Shown: positions 8,479-15,891 of the stretch, piece by piece
How positions within the stretch are numbered: the stretch's first letter is position 1
Layout of the letters: every line of letters begins with the position of its first letter
Notes under the pieces: model-generated
What the model was told of the DNA's origin: nothing
Database searches by the model: none
The model's input: only the letters and a program-made list of their open reading frames with translations
Program-made: the position numbers and the translations under genes
Assembly: GCA_937922775.1 (NCBI GenBank)
Contig: CALAKE010000485.1
Coordinates: forward strand, 1 to 30,059
Direction of reading: 5' to 3'
Source: an uncultured bacterium
GTDB lineage: Bacteria > Acidobacteriota > UBA890
Length of the DNA: 30,059 nucleotides

Positions 8479-8859
8479 TGAATCCTCCAGTGCTGAGTCG
8501 AAGAGCTGCGCCGCCTAAGGGGCGTGTCGGCAGGCTGCCATGCTTCTGACCATCATTCTACCTCAGACGAGTGAAATGACATTGGTGGGTGGTGCGTCCG
8601 TAGGGGGCGTCTATGTTGTGCCGAGCCGGCTCTATTGGCCTGTCTCCAAGGCACTCTTTGCGACGGGGGGCTGGAGTTATTTAACTTTTTGGTGCACTGT
8701 TTACGTCTTGGCAGGAGTGACCAACGCAGCCCAAAAGCAGCACTTGGTGGTCACTAGCAGAGGCCAATGTCGGAAGGGAGGCACCCTTCGACGTTATCAA
8801 TAGTCAGGGTGCGCCCTGAAGTCGTGCGTATGGGGGCCGTTGCAGGGGGGAGGTGTTTG

Positions 8860-10356
8860 ATGAAGGCCAATCTTTTGGCCAGACTCGGGCTTAGGGAATT
8901 CCTGTGTCGCCCAGCGCATGCGTCCGACCTCGATGCGGCACTGCGGGCCGCCGCAAGGGCCTGCCTCCACTCGCCAGGGGCGCAGCAGGCGTGGACGAGC
9001 CTGCGGGCATCTGAGGTCAGGGTTCCCGATAGTGTGTCATCCGTCGAAGACTTGCCCTACGGGTTCGAGGTGCCTGTCGAGCTCGCCGGCCGCGTTTGTG
9101 GCACAGTCGGGTTCGCTGCCGCCGAGCCGGTCAACGGTGATTCGCAGTCTCTGGCGAGCCTGGTCTCCGGAGTGCTCTCGACCTGGGAGGCCCGGCGGCG
9201 CTTGGCTGAGGCTTCACCGTCGTACACGATCGTGGGGTGCAGCGCTGAGATCCGCGGCACAGAGGCGTTGGCGCACCGGTTTGCGGCCCTCGACGAGCCA
9301 GTTCTCATCATGGGTGAAACGGGGGTAGGGAAGGAGCTTGTCGCGCGCACGATTCATTGCCTGAGCCCCCGGCAGGATGAGGTGCTGTGGGCATTCAACT
9401 GTGCCGCCGTTCCCGAGGATTTGCTGGTTAGCGAGCTCTTCGGCCACCGTCGCGGTGCCTTCACGGGAGCCATCCGCGACCAACGAGGTCGTGTTGAAAT
9501 GGCGAACGGCGCCATTCTCTTCCTCGACGAAGTGGGAGACATGGGGCCCAAGATGCAGGCTGCACTGTTGCGCGTGATCGAGACGGGTGAGATCCAGCAA
9601 CTAGGAGACGAGGGACAGGGCCGCCACGTGAACGTCCGTATCATTGCGGCGACCAATCGTGACCTCGAAACTGAGGTCGCCGAAGGCAGGTTCCGCAGTG
9701 ACCTCTACTATCGACTCAGCCCCCTGAACATCAGGGTGCCTGCGTTGAGAGAGAGGCTGGTCGACATCGCAGTTCTGGCTCGACACTTCGTCCGGGTTCT
9801 CGAAAAGGACTGGCATAGACCCCTGGAGCTCACCGATAGCGCGATTCAGCAACTCGTTGCCTACCCGTTCCCTGGCAACGCACGCGAGCTGCGAAATCTT
9901 ATTTTGCGCGCCGCCGCCACCTGCGTAGATGGTCGAGTCGATGATCTCCTCCTTCCAGGTTCGAATCGACGCCCCGCGAGTGCTGCTCTTCCGTGGCCGC
10001 GTGCCGGCGGTGCCGCGCGTACGGCTGCATCTGGCGACGATCGCGCCCACGAGGATCCAAGGCAGGCCTTTCGCGGGCGCGGGCACCCGAGTGTCGGGAG
10101 CAACCTGGCCCGGGCGTCCAGCGCCAAGGGCAGCTTCCCCCGGGCAGAAGGGCGGGTCAGCAGCACGCGCAGACATTCGAGCGGTCGAGCTGACGGTCGG
10201 TCGACCGATCTCAGCTTGAGCTTGGAAGCCGTGACAGCCGATCACCTGCGCAAGGTTCTCGCAATGGCTGAAGGCAACATCAGTGAGGCGGCCCGACTGC
10301 TGGAGATCCCAAGGACGACACTGCAGTCAAAGCTGGAACGCTACGGGCTCCTCTAG
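8860..10356 (+). CDS. Sigma54-dependent Fis-family transcriptional activator (bEBP) with GAF-like N-terminus
   Basis: Walker A GETGVGKE, intact GAFTGA, Walker B LFLDEVG, RIIAATNRDL, FRSDLYYRL, PGNARELRN and C-terminal Fis HTH NISEAARLLEIPRTTL. SD GGAGGT precedes ATG 8860. Confidence 0.95.
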   Translation: MKANLLARLGLREFLCRPAHASDLDAALRAAARACLHSPGAQQAWTSLRASEVRVPDSVSSVEDLPYGFEVPVELAGRVCGTVGFAAAEPVNGDSQSLASLVSGVLSTWEARRRLAEASPSYTIVGCSAEIRGTEALAHRFAALDEPVLIMGETGVGKELVARTIHCLSPRQDEVLWAFNCAAVPEDLLVSELFGHRRGAFTGAIRDQRGRVEMANGAILFLDEVGDMGPKMQAALLRVIETGEIQQLGDEGQGRHVNVRIIAATNRDLETEVAEGRFRSDLYYRLSPLNIRVPALRERLVDIAVLARHFVRVLEKDWHRPLELTDSAIQQLVAYPFPGNARELRNLILRAAATCVDGRVDDLLLPGSNRRPASAALPWPRAGGAARTAASGDDRAHEDPRQAFRGRGHPSVGSNLARASSAKGSFPRAEGRVSSTRRHSSGRADGRSTDLSLSLEAVTADHLRKVLAMAEGNISEAARLLEIPRTTLQSKLERYGLL

Positions 10357-10400: not shown

Positions 10401-11027
10401 CTAGCGTGCGACCTGTAGTCCCGGCACGAGTTCCCCCATCGACTGTGAAATGACCGCGACATGCTCTTCGCTCAGGCCGCCACCCCAGACCTGCTGAATC
10501 ACACCCTCGGCATCGAGGGCGAGAGTCTGGGGGACCGAATGCATGCCCAAGTCCGCGATGAAAGAGCGGGCATCTTCCACGACGAGCAGGGGGAACTCTG
10601 CCCGCGATGTTTCTATGAAACGCTGCGTCCTGTCGAGATCATCAAGAGACAAAGCAATGAAGCGCAATTGGCCACTGACCGACCGGTGGATGGAATTCCA
10701 GATCGGTACGTTGGTTCTACAGAATGGGCAAGTGGTCGTGAGGACTACGATGATCGTGGCTGGGTTGCCAGGTTCCGCTGGGCGCAGCTCGATAGAGTTA
10801 CCGCTCAGATCGACAGATCCCGTCACGGGGAATTGGGTCCCGACACGGAGCTCGTTTCGACTCAATGCCGGAGAGGGCGGTGCCGGGCCGAAGCGCCTGA
10901 AGCCCCATAGACCAAACTGAATCACCAGAATAGCGAGACAAAGCAGAAGCACCCTGGTGATGACGCGTTCGAACCGGTTGCCACCGCCTCGCTCTTCTCG
11001 CTCCTCGTCAGAATCGCCCGCGCCCAC
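10401..11027 (-). CDS. Membrane-anchored TlpA/redoxin-family thioredoxin-fold protein
   Basis: N-terminal TM helix, CPFC active site, cis-Pro loop SVPQT. GTG 11027 gives better SD spacing than 11033. Confidence 0.88.
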   Translation of the reverse strand: MGAGDSDEEREERGGGNRFERVITRVLLLCLAILVIQFGLWGFRRFGPAPPSPALSRNELRVGTQFPVTGSVDLSGNSIELRPAEPGNPATIIVVLTTTCPFCRTNVPIWNSIHRSVSGQLRFIALSLDDLDRTQRFIETSRAEFPLLVVEDARSFIADLGMHSVPQTLALDAEGVIQQVWGGGLSEEHVAVISQSMGELVPGLQVAR

Positions 11028-11154
11028 CGCCACCTCCTATCTCACCGGCCTCAGGATCATCCGGTGCGCACAAAGATGGCGCGGCGGGTCGATGGACGCA
11101 AGGGGGAAAGCCCATCGGCCCGCGCGCGCGCTTCGCTGCTGAGCTCGAGGTGTC

Positions 11155-11421
11155 TCAGTAACAGAGAACGTCCGCCGACATTCCGTCGGAGCACCATACG
11201 GTGCAACCGCAGCCCCACCATTCCCACATTCTCGAGCAGCCCTCGTCGAAGATGCTGCAGAAGACGGCGCACGAGTCACCACAATCGACCCAACCATCGC
11301 GGCCGCCGCCTGCACGTTCGGCGTACGCTGGTGACGCAGTCAGATGCACTGTGGCGAGCAATACCAGGGCGATGGCCCAAACTAACGTCGCGATCTCGAA
11401 GTATTTCCTGCGGTTGCTCAA
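11155..11421 (-). CDS. Secreted Cys/Trp-rich small protein, copy 2
   Basis: TTG start with purine-rich SD, 34-aa signal peptide ending AYA, 54-aa mature region with 8 Cys. Differences from copy 1 are almost all synonymous. Confidence 0.88.
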   Translation of the reverse strand: MSNRRKYFEIATLVWAIALVLLATVHLTASPAYAERAGGGRDGWVDCGDSCAVFCSIFDEGCSRMWEWWGCGCTVWCSDGMSADVLCY

Positions 11422-11488
11422 TTACTCTTCCCCTTTCAGGTTCTCCCTCTGTTCCTTGCTGCTCGTTGGCGTTATTCGGGATGGCAAC

Positions 11489-11755
11489 TTAGTAGCAGAG
11501 AACGTCCGCCGACATGCCGTCGGAGCACCACACGGTGCAGCCGCAGCCCCACCATTCCCACATTCTCGAGCAGCCCTCATCGAAGATGCTGCAGAAGACG
11601 GCACATGAATCTCCACAGTCGACCCAACCATCGCGGCCTCCTCCCGCACGGTCGGCGTACGCGGGTGACGCGGTCAGGTGCACCGCGGCCAGCAATACAA
11701 GGGCGATGGCCCAAACCAACGTCGCGATCTCGAAGTACCTTCTGCGTCTATTCAA
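11489..11755 (-). CDS. Secreted Cys/Trp-rich small protein, copy 1
   Basis: SD AGGAGG, TTG start, signal peptide ending SPAYA; mature DRAGGGRDGWVDCGDSCAVFCSIFDEGCSRMWEWWGCGCTVWCSDGMSADVLCY; 83/88 aa identical to copy 2. Confidence 0.88.
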   Translation of the reverse strand: MNRRRRYFEIATLVWAIALVLLAAVHLTASPAYADRAGGGRDGWVDCGDSCAVFCSIFDEGCSRMWEWWGCGCTVWCSDGMSADVLCY

Positions 11756-11881: not shown

Positions 11882-12919
11882 TCAAGGGGCGTTTGAGGCG
11901 GTCATCTGAGTCCCCACAGAGAAGCTCAAGCCATCCCCATCAGCAGCAACCAGGACACCGTCGGAGTCCATTGTGGCTCCGAAAACACGCCCTTCAGCCA
12001 CCCACTGTTGTTCGAGCTCTCCATCCAGTGAGTATAGGTAGACAACTCGAGAGTTGATCTTGTGCATCACATAGGTAAGAAGGAGCCGATCGCCGGAGGC
12101 GCTCAGGTCCATGTGCAGAATCGGGTCTAGGTTTGCCTGTGGCATGACTTTGCGAGCCTCCTTCAAGCGAATCTCGGCATCTTCGCGGAGCCCAGGCGGA
12201 TCAATGGGCCATTCGCCAACCTGGTTGAGCTCTCTGTCGAACACCCTGACAACGAGCTGTCGGTTGTCGAGCCAATACAAGTTGTCTTCCGAATCGAGGA
12301 CGAAGAGACTGTGAGTCCAAGCTTTGTAGCCGGCGTCAGGCTTTCGGAGAACCGGCTCCGCATCGGTCAGGTCCCCCGAGTAGCGTGTCAGCAGTGCCTC
12401 ACCTTCGCCGGGCCAGGCCAAGACCTCACCCGTCGAGGTAGCGACGATGCTCGAGACACCGCGCTGGGTCACGGACGCCAGATACGTCCCATCCGGCGCG
12501 TACTTGGTGATGCGCCCTAGGCCGTCGTCAGCCACGAATAGGTTTCCGGATGCGTCGATCGCTACGCCGGAAGGCTGCTTGAGCTCACCGGGGCCCTCGC
12601 CCTTGGACCCGAACACCTGAATGACGTTCACACTGCTGTGGTCCACGGTCGGGCGTAGTTGCAGGACACGGTTGTTCCCCGTGTCGGAAACGTACAAGTC
12701 GCCCGTGCTGGACGCGGTCAGGATCATCGCCATATAGAGGGGATCCTCGAGGCCATCGAGCGTTTCCACTCGCAGCGTGGTTTCGGCGAATGGCGTCGGC
12801 TCGGCAGAGTCCGGCGCTGATGGCGAAAGACCCATGATGGCCACCAACCAGATCGTGGCCGCACCGAGAACAGTGACCCGGCCAATCGGGGACATGAGAG
12901 GACCGACAATTCGCGACAT
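11882..12919 (-). CDS. NHL-repeat / 6-bladed beta-propeller exported protein
   Basis: N-terminal hydrophobic signal; NHL repeats GDLYVSDTGNNRV and FGSKGEGPGELKQPSGVAIDASGNLFVAD; SD AAGGAG. Confidence 0.88.
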   Translation of the reverse strand: MSRIVGPLMSPIGRVTVLGAATIWLVAIMGLSPSAPDSAEPTPFAETTLRVETLDGLEDPLYMAMILTASSTGDLYVSDTGNNRVLQLRPTVDHSSVNVIQVFGSKGEGPGELKQPSGVAIDASGNLFVADDGLGRITKYAPDGTYLASVTQRGVSSIVATSTGEVLAWPGEGEALLTRYSGDLTDAEPVLRKPDAGYKAWTHSLFVLDSEDNLYWLDNRQLVVRVFDRELNQVGEWPIDPPGLREDAEIRLKEARKVMPQANLDPILHMDLSASGDRLLLTYVMHKINSRVVYLYSLDGELEQQWVAEGRVFGATMDSDGVLVAADGDGLSFSVGTQMTASNAP

Positions 12920-12957: not shown

Positions 12958-12974
12958 AGCAATCCTCGTGCCAA
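12958..12974 (-). promoter_or_regulatory. Sigma54 (-24/-12) promoter
   Basis: Minus strand reads TTGGCACGAGGATTGCT, matching TGGCACG-N4-TTGCW; predicted +1 near 12947, 28 nt before the propeller ATG. Confidence 0.85.
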
Positions 12975-13064: not shown

Positions 13065-13087
13065 GAGTCAGCGAGCAAAACAGGATA

Positions 13088-13111
13088 CGGGTGCCGAAAT
13101 ATCGGCACCCG
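13088..13111 (-). terminator. Hairpin after the anti-sigma gene (terminator, or alternatively an operator)
   Basis: CGGGTGCCGA-AATA-TCGGCACCCG 10-bp perfect stem 17 nt past the stop; only a weak U-tract follows. Confidence 0.45.
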
Positions 13112-13128
13112 CAGAGTCTTGACCGGAG

Positions 13129-13968
13129 CTAGAGTGGTGCGTCCGCGCTCGCGAGCAGATCGCGGACCTCGGATGCGAGGGCCTTGGCTTCCGAGCCGAA
13201 GACGAAGCGCCAACTCTCGGCTCCCAACCGTGGTGCGGCGAGCTCGTCCAGGATCTGGAGGGACTCGTCTGTCCGCCCGAGCAGCAGCAGCGCGTTCGCA
13301 CGGTACCAGCATGCCTGTCTCAGAATCGCGCTGTCGCTACCGTCACCCAAGGACTCCAATACGGTGACCGCGTCTTCGGGCCGCCCAGCCAAGTAATGTG
13401 CGACGCCTGTGTAGAAACGGAAGAAGTCGACGTCGGCCTGCGCCGGTGGTGCATCGGCAAGAAGCTCGAGGACATGCTCTGGCCGGTCGGCGAGCAAGGC
13501 TTGTCTCGCCTCGTCCAACAACTGCTCCTCACCAGCGCGGCGCACGGCATCAGGAGACGGCCGGCCAATAGTCTCGACGAACTCATCGGTGGCCAGATTT
13601 GCCAACTCGGCTCGCAGATCGACAGCAGGTATTACCTCCGTACGCTGCATCATCGGCGAGGTCCAGACAACGACCGCCAGCAACGCCGCAACCGCCACCG
13701 TAGCGGCCAAGCGCAAATACTGGCGCGCCCACCGGCGGCTGCTGACGGGAGCTCGTGTCGGGAAAGGAATGGTGTTCGGCGTCGAGTTGGCCTCCGCCTC
13801 GCGCAGGGCCTCCAACGCCGCGTCCCGATGGACTTGCAAGCTCACAAGCACCGCATGGAGGTCGGCACATTCCTGACAGCGATCCATGTGATTGAGCTGC
13901 TCGTCGAGGTCCTCAGGGTGCGTATCCCCGTGAATCAGGTCGAGCAGGTCTTCAGTGCTGAGATGCAT
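13129..13968 (-). CDS. Zinc-binding anti-sigma factor (zf-HC2/ZAS) with TM helix and periplasmic TPR-like domain
   Basis: HMDRCQEC (HxxxCxxC), TM segment LAATVAVAALLAVVVW, TPR-like helices (FYTGVAHYLAG, WYRANALLLLG); directly downstream of the ECF sigma gene. Confidence 0.82.
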   Translation of the reverse strand: MHLSTEDLLDLIHGDTHPEDLDEQLNHMDRCQECADLHAVLVSLQVHRDAALEALREAEANSTPNTIPFPTRAPVSSRRWARQYLRLAATVAVAALLAVVVWTSPMMQRTEVIPAVDLRAELANLATDEFVETIGRPSPDAVRRAGEEQLLDEARQALLADRPEHVLELLADAPPAQADVDFFRFYTGVAHYLAGRPEDAVTVLESLGDGSDSAILRQACWYRANALLLLGRTDESLQILDELAAPRLGAESWRFVFGSEAKALASEVRDLLASADAPL

Positions 13969-14033: not shown

Positions 14034-14603
14034 CTAATGGACATTTTCCGACAACATCTTCTTCAGGTTCCCGAGGGCTGATTGTAGTCGACTATGCAGA
14101 GTGGAGATGGGCGCCCCGGTGAGCTCGGATGCTTCTCTCAGCTTCAGCGGGGGTTGCCGGAGAACCAACAACTCAATGGCTTCACGCTGCGCCTGAGGAA
14201 GCTCCTGCATGCGGCGCAGCATCTCCTTGACCTGCGCGGCCTCGGCCGTCTTTTCTTCTCGTACGACCAGCCGCTCTTCCTGGTCGGCGTCGACGCCTCC
14301 AAGACGTGGCCCTGGCTCACCGGGCTCGGCAAAGCTCGTGAGGCGGGAGCGGGCCCGCACCCTATCGATGGCGCAGTGGTTGACGCTGCGAGTCAGGTAG
14401 CGCCCGGCAGACTCGACATCGGGGAGGTTACCGGCACCGGCGAGCACTCGAGACACAGCTTCCTGGACCGCATCCTCTGCGTCATACGGGTTTCCGGTAA
14501 TCCGCAGCGCAAGGCGCACCCAGATCTCACGGTTCTGCTCGACTGCGGCGGCGACCAGCTCGGCTCTGCTCAGTTTTCGCTCAGCTCTGGTTACTCGGGC
14601 CAC
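14034..14603 (-). CDS. ECF RNA polymerase sigma-70 family factor
   Basis: Region 2 (AEDAVQEA..YLTRSVNHCAIDRVR) and region 4 (LPQAQREAIEL..ISTLHSRL). GTG 14603 with SD GGAG preferred over 14801. Confidence 0.9.
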   Translation of the reverse strand: MARVTRAERKLSRAELVAAAVEQNREIWVRLALRITGNPYDAEDAVQEAVSRVLAGAGNLPDVESAGRYLTRSVNHCAIDRVRARSRLTSFAEPGEPGPRLGGVDADQEERLVVREEKTAEAAQVKEMLRRMQELPQAQREAIELLVLRQPPLKLREASELTGAPISTLHSRLQSALGNLKKMLSENVH

Positions 14604-14904
14604 CTGATGCTCTCCGGGACCGCCTTCCAGCGTGCACAATCGGGGAGACGACGTTGGCATCGCCTTCCCACAGGGCATGATAGCCGTGACCCAGTAATTG
14701 ATGGGAGACAAAAGTGTCTGCCCACTCGAACACAGCGGTCCCCAGCCCTGAACAGCCTGCCGCTGCGCATTCAGCGGCTGGCTCAAATTCAAAGGTAGCA
14801 AATTCCACTATGCGGGCATACAACAAACAACTCGACCATGGTGGGCCAGAAATCTCCAGATGGGGGGGCAACGAGTGGCTACAGAGGCCACTGTATTCTC
14901 TAGA

Positions 14905-15891
14905 TCACGAGGTAGGGCCGCGATTGGCGAGCTGATAGTAGCCGCGCCGCACCCGTGTGAAATCGTCGTACGAAGAGAGAATGGAAGAAACCGTGACGTT
15001 CGGGTTCTTGGCCCTGATCTCAGCGCCCATCGAAATCACCCGATCGGTAATCTCGGCGACCCGCATCGGTTCCTCGGCTTCGGACAAGACCCGCTTGCAG
15101 GCTGCGACGATGGTGTCGGGTCTGCCGCCTCCCGACCGTCTCCCGCGCCCCGACTCCTCACCCTGCGCCGGTTCGATTTGCGATGCCGAATCGGCCGACA
15201 TCCGGGCTCGTCTCACCTGCTTGGATAGTCGGTTGAGCGTCCTGGCCAACTCCTTCGAGGTTGCGACCGCTGTCTCCAGCTCTTCTTCGAGGTCGGAGAG
15301 CTTCCTCGCATACCTACGACTGACGGCAGCCCGCTGCTGCAGCGCACGGCGCTGCCCGCCACCCCTGCGGCCGAGGTTCTCGACCTTGATCTTCCTGAAG
15401 ACTGAAACGGCCTCGGCAGGAAACTTGCGCATCTTGCCGACCATCTCGCTGGGGATCCTGTCGGGCTGCTCTTTCACGTACTTCGAGAGGCTGGCAAGGC
15501 TGATACCTGTCCTGGCAGCCATCTCCGTCAAGGTGAAGAGCTGCTTGTCCGTCTCATCCAATGGATCTTCGCCGTCAGCAACCGCGCGAATCATTCGCAA
15601 GGCCACCCTCGGCACCATGGGATGGCTCGGGCTCCCCAGGTAGGGGATCTCCTCGCGGTGGTCGCGCAGGATCTCCTCGAGGACCTCGACGTCGATTTCG
15701 ATCTCCTGGGAAATCTGTTCCTTCCCGACAACCAGCTCAGGGTCTCGCTCGAAGGACGGATACAGCTTGAGGATGCGCTCGACATCGTCATCGTTGAGCG
15801 AGTTGCTCTCGAGCCCCATGTACTTGATGACTCGAAGAATGGGTGCCAGCTCCAGATGGGGGTGCCTACCGTGAAGCTCCAGTGCAGTCAT
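14905..15891 (-). CDS. Multi-HTH DNA-binding protein (MerR/excisionase-like HTH, coiled coil, C-terminal winged helix)
   Basis: FTLTEMAARTGISLASLSKY HTH, heptad-rich segment, and TIVAACKRVLSEAEEPMRVAEITDRV...FTRVRRGYYQL resembling HARE-HTH. Alternative start at 15819. Confidence 0.7.
   Translation of the reverse strand: MTALELHGRHPHLELAPILRVIKYMGLESNSLNDDDVERILKLYPSFERDPELVVGKEQISQEIEIDVEVLEEILRDHREEIPYLGSPSHPMVPRVALRMIRAVADGEDPLDETDKQLFTLTEMAARTGISLASLSKYVKEQPDRIPSEMVGKMRKFPAEAVSVFRKIKVENLGRRGGGQRRALQQRAAVSRRYARKLSDLEEELETAVATSKELARTLNRLSKQVRRARMSADSASQIEPAQGEESGRGRRSGGGRPDTIVAACKRVLSEAEEPMRVAEITDRVISMGAEIRAKNPNVTVSSILSSYDDFTRVRRGYYQLANRGPTS

Follow-up and report, generated by a model that had tools for sequence, protein, structure and literature searches.

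Why should a bacterial genome carry, side by side, two very short genes that specify practically the same exported peptide, and what might that peptide do in the company it keeps? The question arises from a stretch of 30,059 nucleotides from an uncultured member of the Acidobacteriota (contig CALAKE010000485.1 of assembly GCA_937922775.1; the whole stretch is referred to below as the window). The first-pass annotation, made from the sequence by itself, described a duplicated peptide gene under near-complete purifying selection on its mature region and considered two products of the same sequence to have been kept for reasons of dosage and because of a tightly constrained partner or ligand.

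A tandem pair of peptide genes under purifying selection

Both genes lie on the minus strand and encode 88 amino acids. Gene B (11489..11755), which starts with TTG behind an AGGAGG ribosome-binding site and ends with TAA, occupies the ancestral position adjoining a gene for an NHL-repeat protein, and the sequence upstream of it can be aligned to the upstream regions of the orthologues. Gene A (11155..11421) also starts with TTG, replaced by GTG in other strains, and ends with TGA; GTG is the start at the same codon in orthologues. Purine tracts resembling Shine-Dalgarno sequences stand close 5' of both starts, AGGAGG in front of gene B and GGGGAAGAG in front of gene A. The repeat unit, 287 nt long and 87% identical between the copies, recurs with a period of 334 nt and takes in about 19 nt 5' of each start. 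In the 67-nt spacer between the copies (11422..11488, minus strand), the 19 nt nearest gene A belong to this unit and hold the ribosome-binding site of that gene; weaker homology is found slightly further upstream, and the remainder of the spacer is unrelated. The earlier description of the spacers as diverged is therefore correct for most of the 67 nt but not for the roughly 19 nt 5' of each start, which lie inside the repeat.

The two genes differ at 30 of 267 nt: 15 differences fall in codons 1-34 (the signal region), 14 in the mature region (codons 35-88, 162 nt) and one in the stop codon (TGA versus TAA). When counted again codon by codon, the 14 mature-region differences comprised 13 synonymous changes plus E35D, all at third positions, which reproduces the count in the first-pass annotation, as does the confinement of the remaining four amino-acid changes (S2N, N3R, K6R and T24A) to the signal peptide. 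By the Nei-Gojobori method, dS is 0.58, dN 0.008 and omega 0.013 for the mature region, and in the 47-residue core, which is identical in A and B, dN is 0 at a dS of 0.54; omega is 0.13 for the signal region, and the overall dS between the copies is 0.55. Given the observed mix of transitions and transversions, the binomial probability that at least 13 of 14 changes would be synonymous under neutrality is about 1e-7. These pairwise values establish purifying selection on both copies and, together with strain variants that spare the frame, agree with the earlier statement that the product is truly translated. Orthologues are not free to diverge in the mature region either, with omega between 0.03 and 0.19 for orthologue pairs and 47 invariant columns in their alignment. 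Gene conversion was ruled out as the cause of the identical cores because the synonymous differences are spread through them, 10 persisting within the core. The genes are real, their reading frame is correct and selection acts on it; it is such a codon-level signal that establishes very short genes of this kind, which gene callers and annotation pipelines leave nameless.

The source genome was assembled from a metagenome and is fragmented (4.48 Mb in 781 contigs, 81% complete), so it is fair to ask whether the two copies are an artefact in which two strains were joined into a chimera or a repeat was collapsed or expanded. In sediments, marine and other, the stretch turns up in runs from 12 studies, and copy A, spacer and copy B are bridged by two contigs that were assembled independently from two other metagenome studies: Logan contig X2 (record 3) covers 11207-11570 with 0 differences, and Logan contig X4 (record 11) covers 11215-11570 with 5. 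Moreover, the flanks and the ribosome-binding sites differ between the copies, and the codon pattern of their differences is that of long separate evolution. We regard the chance of an artefact as negligible, and the first-pass annotation was right to set the pair apart from an assembly duplicate or chimera.

Variation among strains was seen in X4 and in X20, a single metatranscriptome contig of 169 nt (11279-11447, 4 differences). It consists of three synonymous changes, the TTG>GTG change at the start of A and the TAA>TGA change at the stop of B; further variants are E35D in A or D35E in B and one change in the spacer. This pattern is what purifying selection on this frame is expected to leave, and the sole difference between the two mature products, E or D at residue 35, is itself polymorphic. 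X20 gives only a hint of expression, as the contig may derive from DNA carryover in the library. An 88-residue homologue on a 1-kb contig (P0001) mixes residues typical of A (S2, E35) with residues typical of B (R3, R6, A24); we take it for a probable allele of B from another strain, the alternative being a recombinant.

Outside the window, a word-indexed search recovered 11 clusters of close homologues at 75-97% identity, in which the eight-cysteine core is nearly invariant and the linker after A-Y-A varies in length, and ten more distant relatives of 81-111 amino acids came from a profile search run exhaustively over 1.84 billion representatives. Two long matches of the representative search, P0019 and P0020, are Ig/repeat proteins and were treated as spurious. 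Of 14 other genomes in the same GTDB family, 6 contain a member, and these belong to 4 of 7 genera; all other genomes among the 401 Acidobacteriota searched gave one weak match, and the weak match in another Acidobacteriota family (G227) has one stop inside. A search of the ESM Atlas with the peptide returned only unnamed Acidobacteriota clusters (score 0.80). The family, previously undescribed, is confined to one family of uncultured Acidobacteriota of marine sediment that occurs in many metagenomes, and A and B are true tandem paralogues within it. All eight other loci with the same synteny (six in genomes of relatives and two on metagenome contigs) have a single copy. Because every relative found has only one, the second copy is a lineage-specific gain and no property of the system; the dS between A and B is lower than that to any orthologue (0.97-1.66), and therefore the duplication is younger than those splits.

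A sigma54 operon and its conserved neighbourhood

The tandem is part of an operon on the minus strand with the order NHL beta-propeller, peptide B, peptide A and TlpA/ResA-like thiol-disulfide oxidoreductase. The first gene (11882..12919) encodes an NHL-repeat beta-propeller with an N-terminal signal or anchor (Pfam NHL, 1.1e-09), whose profile matches are PknD/Pizza, TRIM71, PAL and, weakly, SOQ1 (E about 1e-5, over two blades); it adjoins the peptide gene in every relative. The product of the last gene (10401..11033) is membrane-anchored and is placed in its class by AhpC-TSA and Redoxin matches above the Pfam cut-offs, a CPFC motif and an N-terminal hydrophobic segment. Its NCBIfam matches to ResA, DsbE and MauD all fall short of the equivalog-level cut-offs, and its nearest PDB structures are ResA and CcmG. 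This gene is found at this place in two genera only (g1 and g2) and is missing there in the other two (g3 and g4), and the enzyme is therefore no obligate partner.

About 40 nt upstream of the NHL start codon, on the minus strand, lies the sigma54 promoter TGGCACGAGGATTGC (12959..12973), the only exact match in the window to the -24/-12 element (TGGCAC-N5-TTGC); an exact element also stands 5' of the NHL gene at the relatives' loci L003, L009, L010, L011 and L012. A gene for a sigma54 activator (bacterial enhancer-binding protein, bEBP; 8767..10356, plus strand; Pfam Sigma54_activat 3.6e-61, HTH_8) converges on the 3' end of the operon and is syntenic in all relatives. At the level of sequence, the exact element and the nearby activator together mark a sigma54 operon, and the bEBP is likely to be its regulator. 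No Pfam domain was detected in the N-terminal ~155 residues of the bEBP, be it a receiver, GAF or PAS domain.

Further upstream, and likewise on the minus strand, an ECF sigma factor (14034-14801) is a conserved neighbour, and between it and the NHL operon lies the gene for an anti-sigma-like membrane protein (13129-13968), which has an N-terminal H-x3-C-x2-C motif of the zinc anti-sigma type, one transmembrane segment and C-terminal TPR repeats and is syntenic in all relatives. After this gene, a terminator-like 12-bp hairpin with a T-rich tail (13086..13113, minus strand) would divide the ECF-sigma/anti-sigma transcription unit from the sigma54 operon. The conserved block is headed by a 328-residue protein (14905-15891, minus strand) with an HTH and a C-terminal HARE-HTH domain, whose identity between genera is 65-91%.

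The order HARE-HTH protein, ECF sigma factor, anti-sigma-like TPR protein, NHL propeller, peptide, TlpA-like enzyme (where present), bEBP and outer-membrane barrel is kept in four genera, and the synteny of NHL gene, peptide gene and bEBP gene extends to 6 other genomes from these genera and 2 metagenome contigs. Both the sigma54 promoter and the adjacency of the NHL and peptide genes are preserved across the four genera, all of one Acidobacteriota family. A complex prediction for the propeller (residues 40-345) with the mature peptide scored 0.22, the mark being 0.32, which weighs neither way on binding, and a literature search on this combination of parts returned nothing relevant. In one relative, the peptide profile has a second, weak match (E 1e-6) elsewhere in the genome, at locus L023 (G005:C1:3685729-3688908), with an ECF sigma-like gene and a weak NHL-like match as neighbours; it may be a diverged paralogous module.

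The precursor, its cysteines and the predicted fold

The precursor consists of a basic N-terminus, a hydrophobic helix, an A-x-A motif, a variable Gly-rich linker and a 47-residue anionic core rich in Cys and Trp. The N-terminus is rich in R and K, residues 10-29 are hydrophobic, and A32 and A34 are invariant in an alignment of 23 sequences, as in a Sec-type signal; the A-x-A followed by a Gly-rich linker of variable length reads as a signal-peptidase I site. Across the 23 sequences, the invariant positions are W15, A16, L19, A32, A34, D46, G70 and seven cysteines. Export by the Tat system was rejected, since the twin arginine is not conserved and only R4 is invariant, and a type IV pilin-like signal was rejected as well, there being no Gly before the conserved Phe. 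The signal/anchor segment (codons 1-34; 11320-11421 in A and 11654-11755 in B) is unusually conserved for a signal peptide, and W15, A16, L19 and an acidic or polar residue at position 9 persist down to relatives with only 30-50% identity. The segment may do more than target the protein, or may be retained as a membrane anchor.

The mature 54-mer has a mass of 5.9 kDa, a pI of 4.05 and five Trp residues. Its core domain, residues 42-88 (DGWVDC...VLCY; 11158..11298 on the minus strand in copy A), contains eight cysteines and has a net charge of about -7, within a family range of -5 to -11. In the full-length AF2 model, an N-terminal helix spans residues 3-28 and the disordered linker residues 30-41, ahead of a compact domain at the C-terminus; the model of the core by itself (pLDDT 87.7, pTM 0.61) has an HEEE topology, with a helix at 6-16 and strands at 21-26, 32-36 and 41-44. 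The core is thus predicted to be one helix packed on a three-stranded sheet. Neither Pfam, with 23 members scanned up to E = 10, nor NCBIfam gave a match for the peptide, and in the PDB sequence search the core had no match, the sole match being to a transmembrane stretch of gp41 (E 1.5). With the full and core models, Foldseek against the PDB found fragment matches only, all with E above 0.3; a wide VIA-align search reached a best Z of 4.0-4.3, which is noise level, with mixed folds (PepSY-, cystatin- and WD-blade-like fragments among them) and no fold assignment.

The cysteine count varies across the family. Distant relatives mostly have seven cysteines and one has six; these members are L012:5008-5238 (G003) and P0015-P0023, and the additional positions, C71 and C73, form the C-G-C of the window clade. 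Most of the family should therefore possess at least one unpaired or intermolecular thiol, and a fully disulfide-bonded scaffold cannot be the whole story. Because the six-cysteine relative lacks both C71 and C73, the sequences suggest a three-disulfide scaffold with one or two extra cysteines.

Weighing the possible roles of the peptide

We favor, with a probability of roughly 0.55, the reading that the product is a disulfide-rich mini-protein of the periplasm and works as a partner of the propeller/thioredoxin pair, its tandem duplicate being retained by selection. Both genes would be co-transcribed from the sigma54 promoter with the NHL and TlpA-like genes, and all products of the operon appear to carry export signals. 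The precursor would be exported via Sec and cleaved after A-Y-A, and the mature peptide would then fold in the periplasm into a disulfide-stabilized alpha/beta mini-domain that may serve as a client or small partner of the NHL propeller. Where present, the TlpA-like enzyme would set or reset the redox state of its cysteines. The duplication arose in this lineage after the split from the sister species, and purifying selection has kept both copies at what is effectively one product, for which the simplest benefit would be a doubled output per operon transcript. A dosage benefit, as suggested in the first-pass annotation, is plausible but unproven because all relatives get by with a single gene; the closely constrained partner or ligand proposed there is likewise a hypothesis.

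The thiols could also be working groups. The peptide might be redox-active or metal-binding, with free thiols (the C-G-C pair in the window clade and the single extra cysteine in the seven-cysteine relatives) kept reduced by the TlpA-like reductase and used as a thiol relay or buffer, or as metal ligands. TlpA/ResA-type enzymes are periplasmic reductants and CXC motifs can be redox-active; the odd number of cysteines in most distant relatives, the six-cysteine variant without C71 and C73, and the strongly acidic core with Asp beside Cys are all in keeping with such a role. Nevertheless, the peptide matches no metal-binding or redox family in Pfam, NCBIfam or the PDB sequences, and the two genera without a TlpA-like gene at the locus also have seven-cysteine peptides, so that we consider this reading rather unlikely. 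A cis-defensin of the CS-alpha-beta type, released against other cells as an antimicrobial or toxin-like peptide, is improbable. Both copies and all other eight-cysteine members fit the published cysteine pattern CX(2,18)CX3CX(2,12)CX(4,17)CXC (PMC11561630), three strands follow a helix in the predicted topology, and the LURE peptide 5yah_C is among the weak structural matches (Z 3.6, rmsd 2.2, 35 aligned residues). However, 4.2% of shuffled cores fit the pattern as well, whereas none of the seven relatives with seven cysteines, which lack the CXC, does so. None of the structural matches rises above noise (best Z 4.3), unrelated folds are among them, and Foldseek found none with E below 0.3 for the HEEE core model. 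The peptide is also strongly anionic, none of the 23 members matched a defensin family in Pfam at E = 10, and the 30-kb window encodes neither an outer-membrane exporter nor an immunity protein recognizable by Pfam.

The two remaining readings differ in what they make of the N-terminal segment. If the helix stayed uncleaved, the product would be a single-pass membrane protein that uses its conserved transmembrane helix to dock on the NHL, TlpA-like or anti-sigma proteins, which are themselves membrane-anchored, and it might act as a signaling or regulatory subunit. The hydrophobic stretch of about 20 residues, the invariance of W15, A16 and L19 even at 30-50% identity together with the omega of 0.13 in this region, and the N-terminal anchors in all neighboring proteins speak for this; but A32 and A34, at -3 and -1 for signal peptidase I, are invariant family-wide and are followed by a linker of variable length, which has the look of a cleavage site, and we hold an uncleaved helix to be quite improbable. 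It is very improbable that the products are RiPP precursors, in which the conserved part would act as leader and a maturase would cross-link the Cys-rich core (for instance through sactipeptide- or ranthipeptide-like thioethers). Tandem precursor copies are common in RiPP loci, and the conserved N-terminal region, Cys-rich C-terminal part and C-x3-C-x3-C spacing are of the kind expected. The supposed leader, however, is a Sec-type signal, hydrophobic and ending in the invariant A-x-A site, a well-packed domain is predicted for the core, and neither the 30-kb window (30 ORFs, Pfam) nor the syntenic loci, which have the same gene set, contain a radical SAM enzyme, YcaO, lanthionine synthetase, P450, C39 peptidase or ABC exporter. 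The lack of a maturase and of a dedicated peptidase or exporter in the window agrees with the first-pass annotation, which had contrasted the pair with diversifying RiPP precursor arrays.

The favored partnership of mini-protein and propeller/thioredoxin pair can be compared with several known systems. In human NHLRC2 and in the lumenal domains of plant SOQ1, a thioredoxin-fold CxxC domain and an NHL propeller are fused and act together (PMC6107167; bioRxiv 10.1101/2021.03.16.435614), which provides some precedent for the pairing. The window shares with them the thioredoxin-fold CxxC, the NHL propeller and, in our reading, an oxidizing compartment and a protein client. Unlike in NHLRC2 and SOQ1, the two parts are encoded here by separate neighboring genes of one operon, resemblance to SOQ1 is weak, two genera have no TlpA-like gene at the locus, and the client would be a dedicated, co-encoded mini-protein. 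A bolder version, in which the NHL propeller and the Cys-rich mini-protein, joined in some genera by the TlpA-like enzyme, make up an undescribed sigma54-controlled periplasmic redox module, a split counterpart of NHLRC2/SOQ1 with a dedicated anionic defensin-like client and the CGC pair as its working thiols, is in our estimation distinctly unlikely.

An analogy of parts exists with the quinoprotein amine dehydrogenases, which also combine a periplasmic beta-propeller with a small subunit that contains Trp and is rich in disulfides, and with a TlpA-like accessory protein; in methylamine dehydrogenase, these are the seven-bladed MauB, the small Cys/Trp-rich MauA and the thioredoxin-like MauD. 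The analogy goes no further: the window propeller is of the six-bladed NHL type, unlike MauB, the match of the TlpA-like protein to MauD is far under the cut-off (23.5 versus 188.6 bits), and no MauG, MauE or other cofactor-maturation genes are present in the window. A role of the peptide as a TTQ/CTQ cofactor subunit was rejected, as the Trp residues are not conserved in distant relatives, which have 0-2 of them, and the window has no MauG or QhpD/QhpG. With tandem RiPP arrays, such as those of two-peptide sactibiotics and lanthipeptides, the pair has in common that short genes lie next to each other and that their products are conserved towards the N-terminus and Cys-rich towards the C-terminus, but its cores are identical and not diversified, its N-terminus is a Sec signal, and maturase, protease and exporter are missing.

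Bacterial cis-defensins are CS-alpha-beta peptides such as xanthusin-1 and actifensin (PMC11561630, PMC12284004). In their fold, disulfides paired C1-C4, C2-C5 and C3-C6 staple a helix to an antiparallel sheet. The window peptide resembles them in its small signal-peptide-bearing precursor, its Cys-rich core of about 45-50 residues and the succession of helix and strands and, in the eight-cysteine clade only, in a CxxxC that falls within the predicted helix and a CxC located at a strand. It departs from them in being strongly anionic and Trp-rich, in having no sequence match or significant structural match, in a CxC that is not conserved across its family, and in the confinement of that family to one Acidobacteriota family. 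Its genes also share a sigma54 operon with those of an NHL propeller and a thioredoxin-like enzyme, and we know of no such operon setting for defensins.

A tandem duplicate under purifying selection is ordinary biology. The value of this locus lies in a small exported Cys-rich family without a database relative, which conserved synteny and a conserved sigma54 promoter tie to an NHL propeller and, where two of the four genera are concerned, also to a thioredoxin-like enzyme of the periplasm; the peptide family and this sigma54/NHL/thioredoxin setting were undescribed, and we find them moderately interesting. If the peptide is defensin-like, the bacterial cis-defensins would be extended to a new phylum-level setting and to anionic peptides. 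If it is a client of the propeller/thioredoxin pair, these bacteria would offer a simple model for the poorly understood NHLRC2 and SOQ1.
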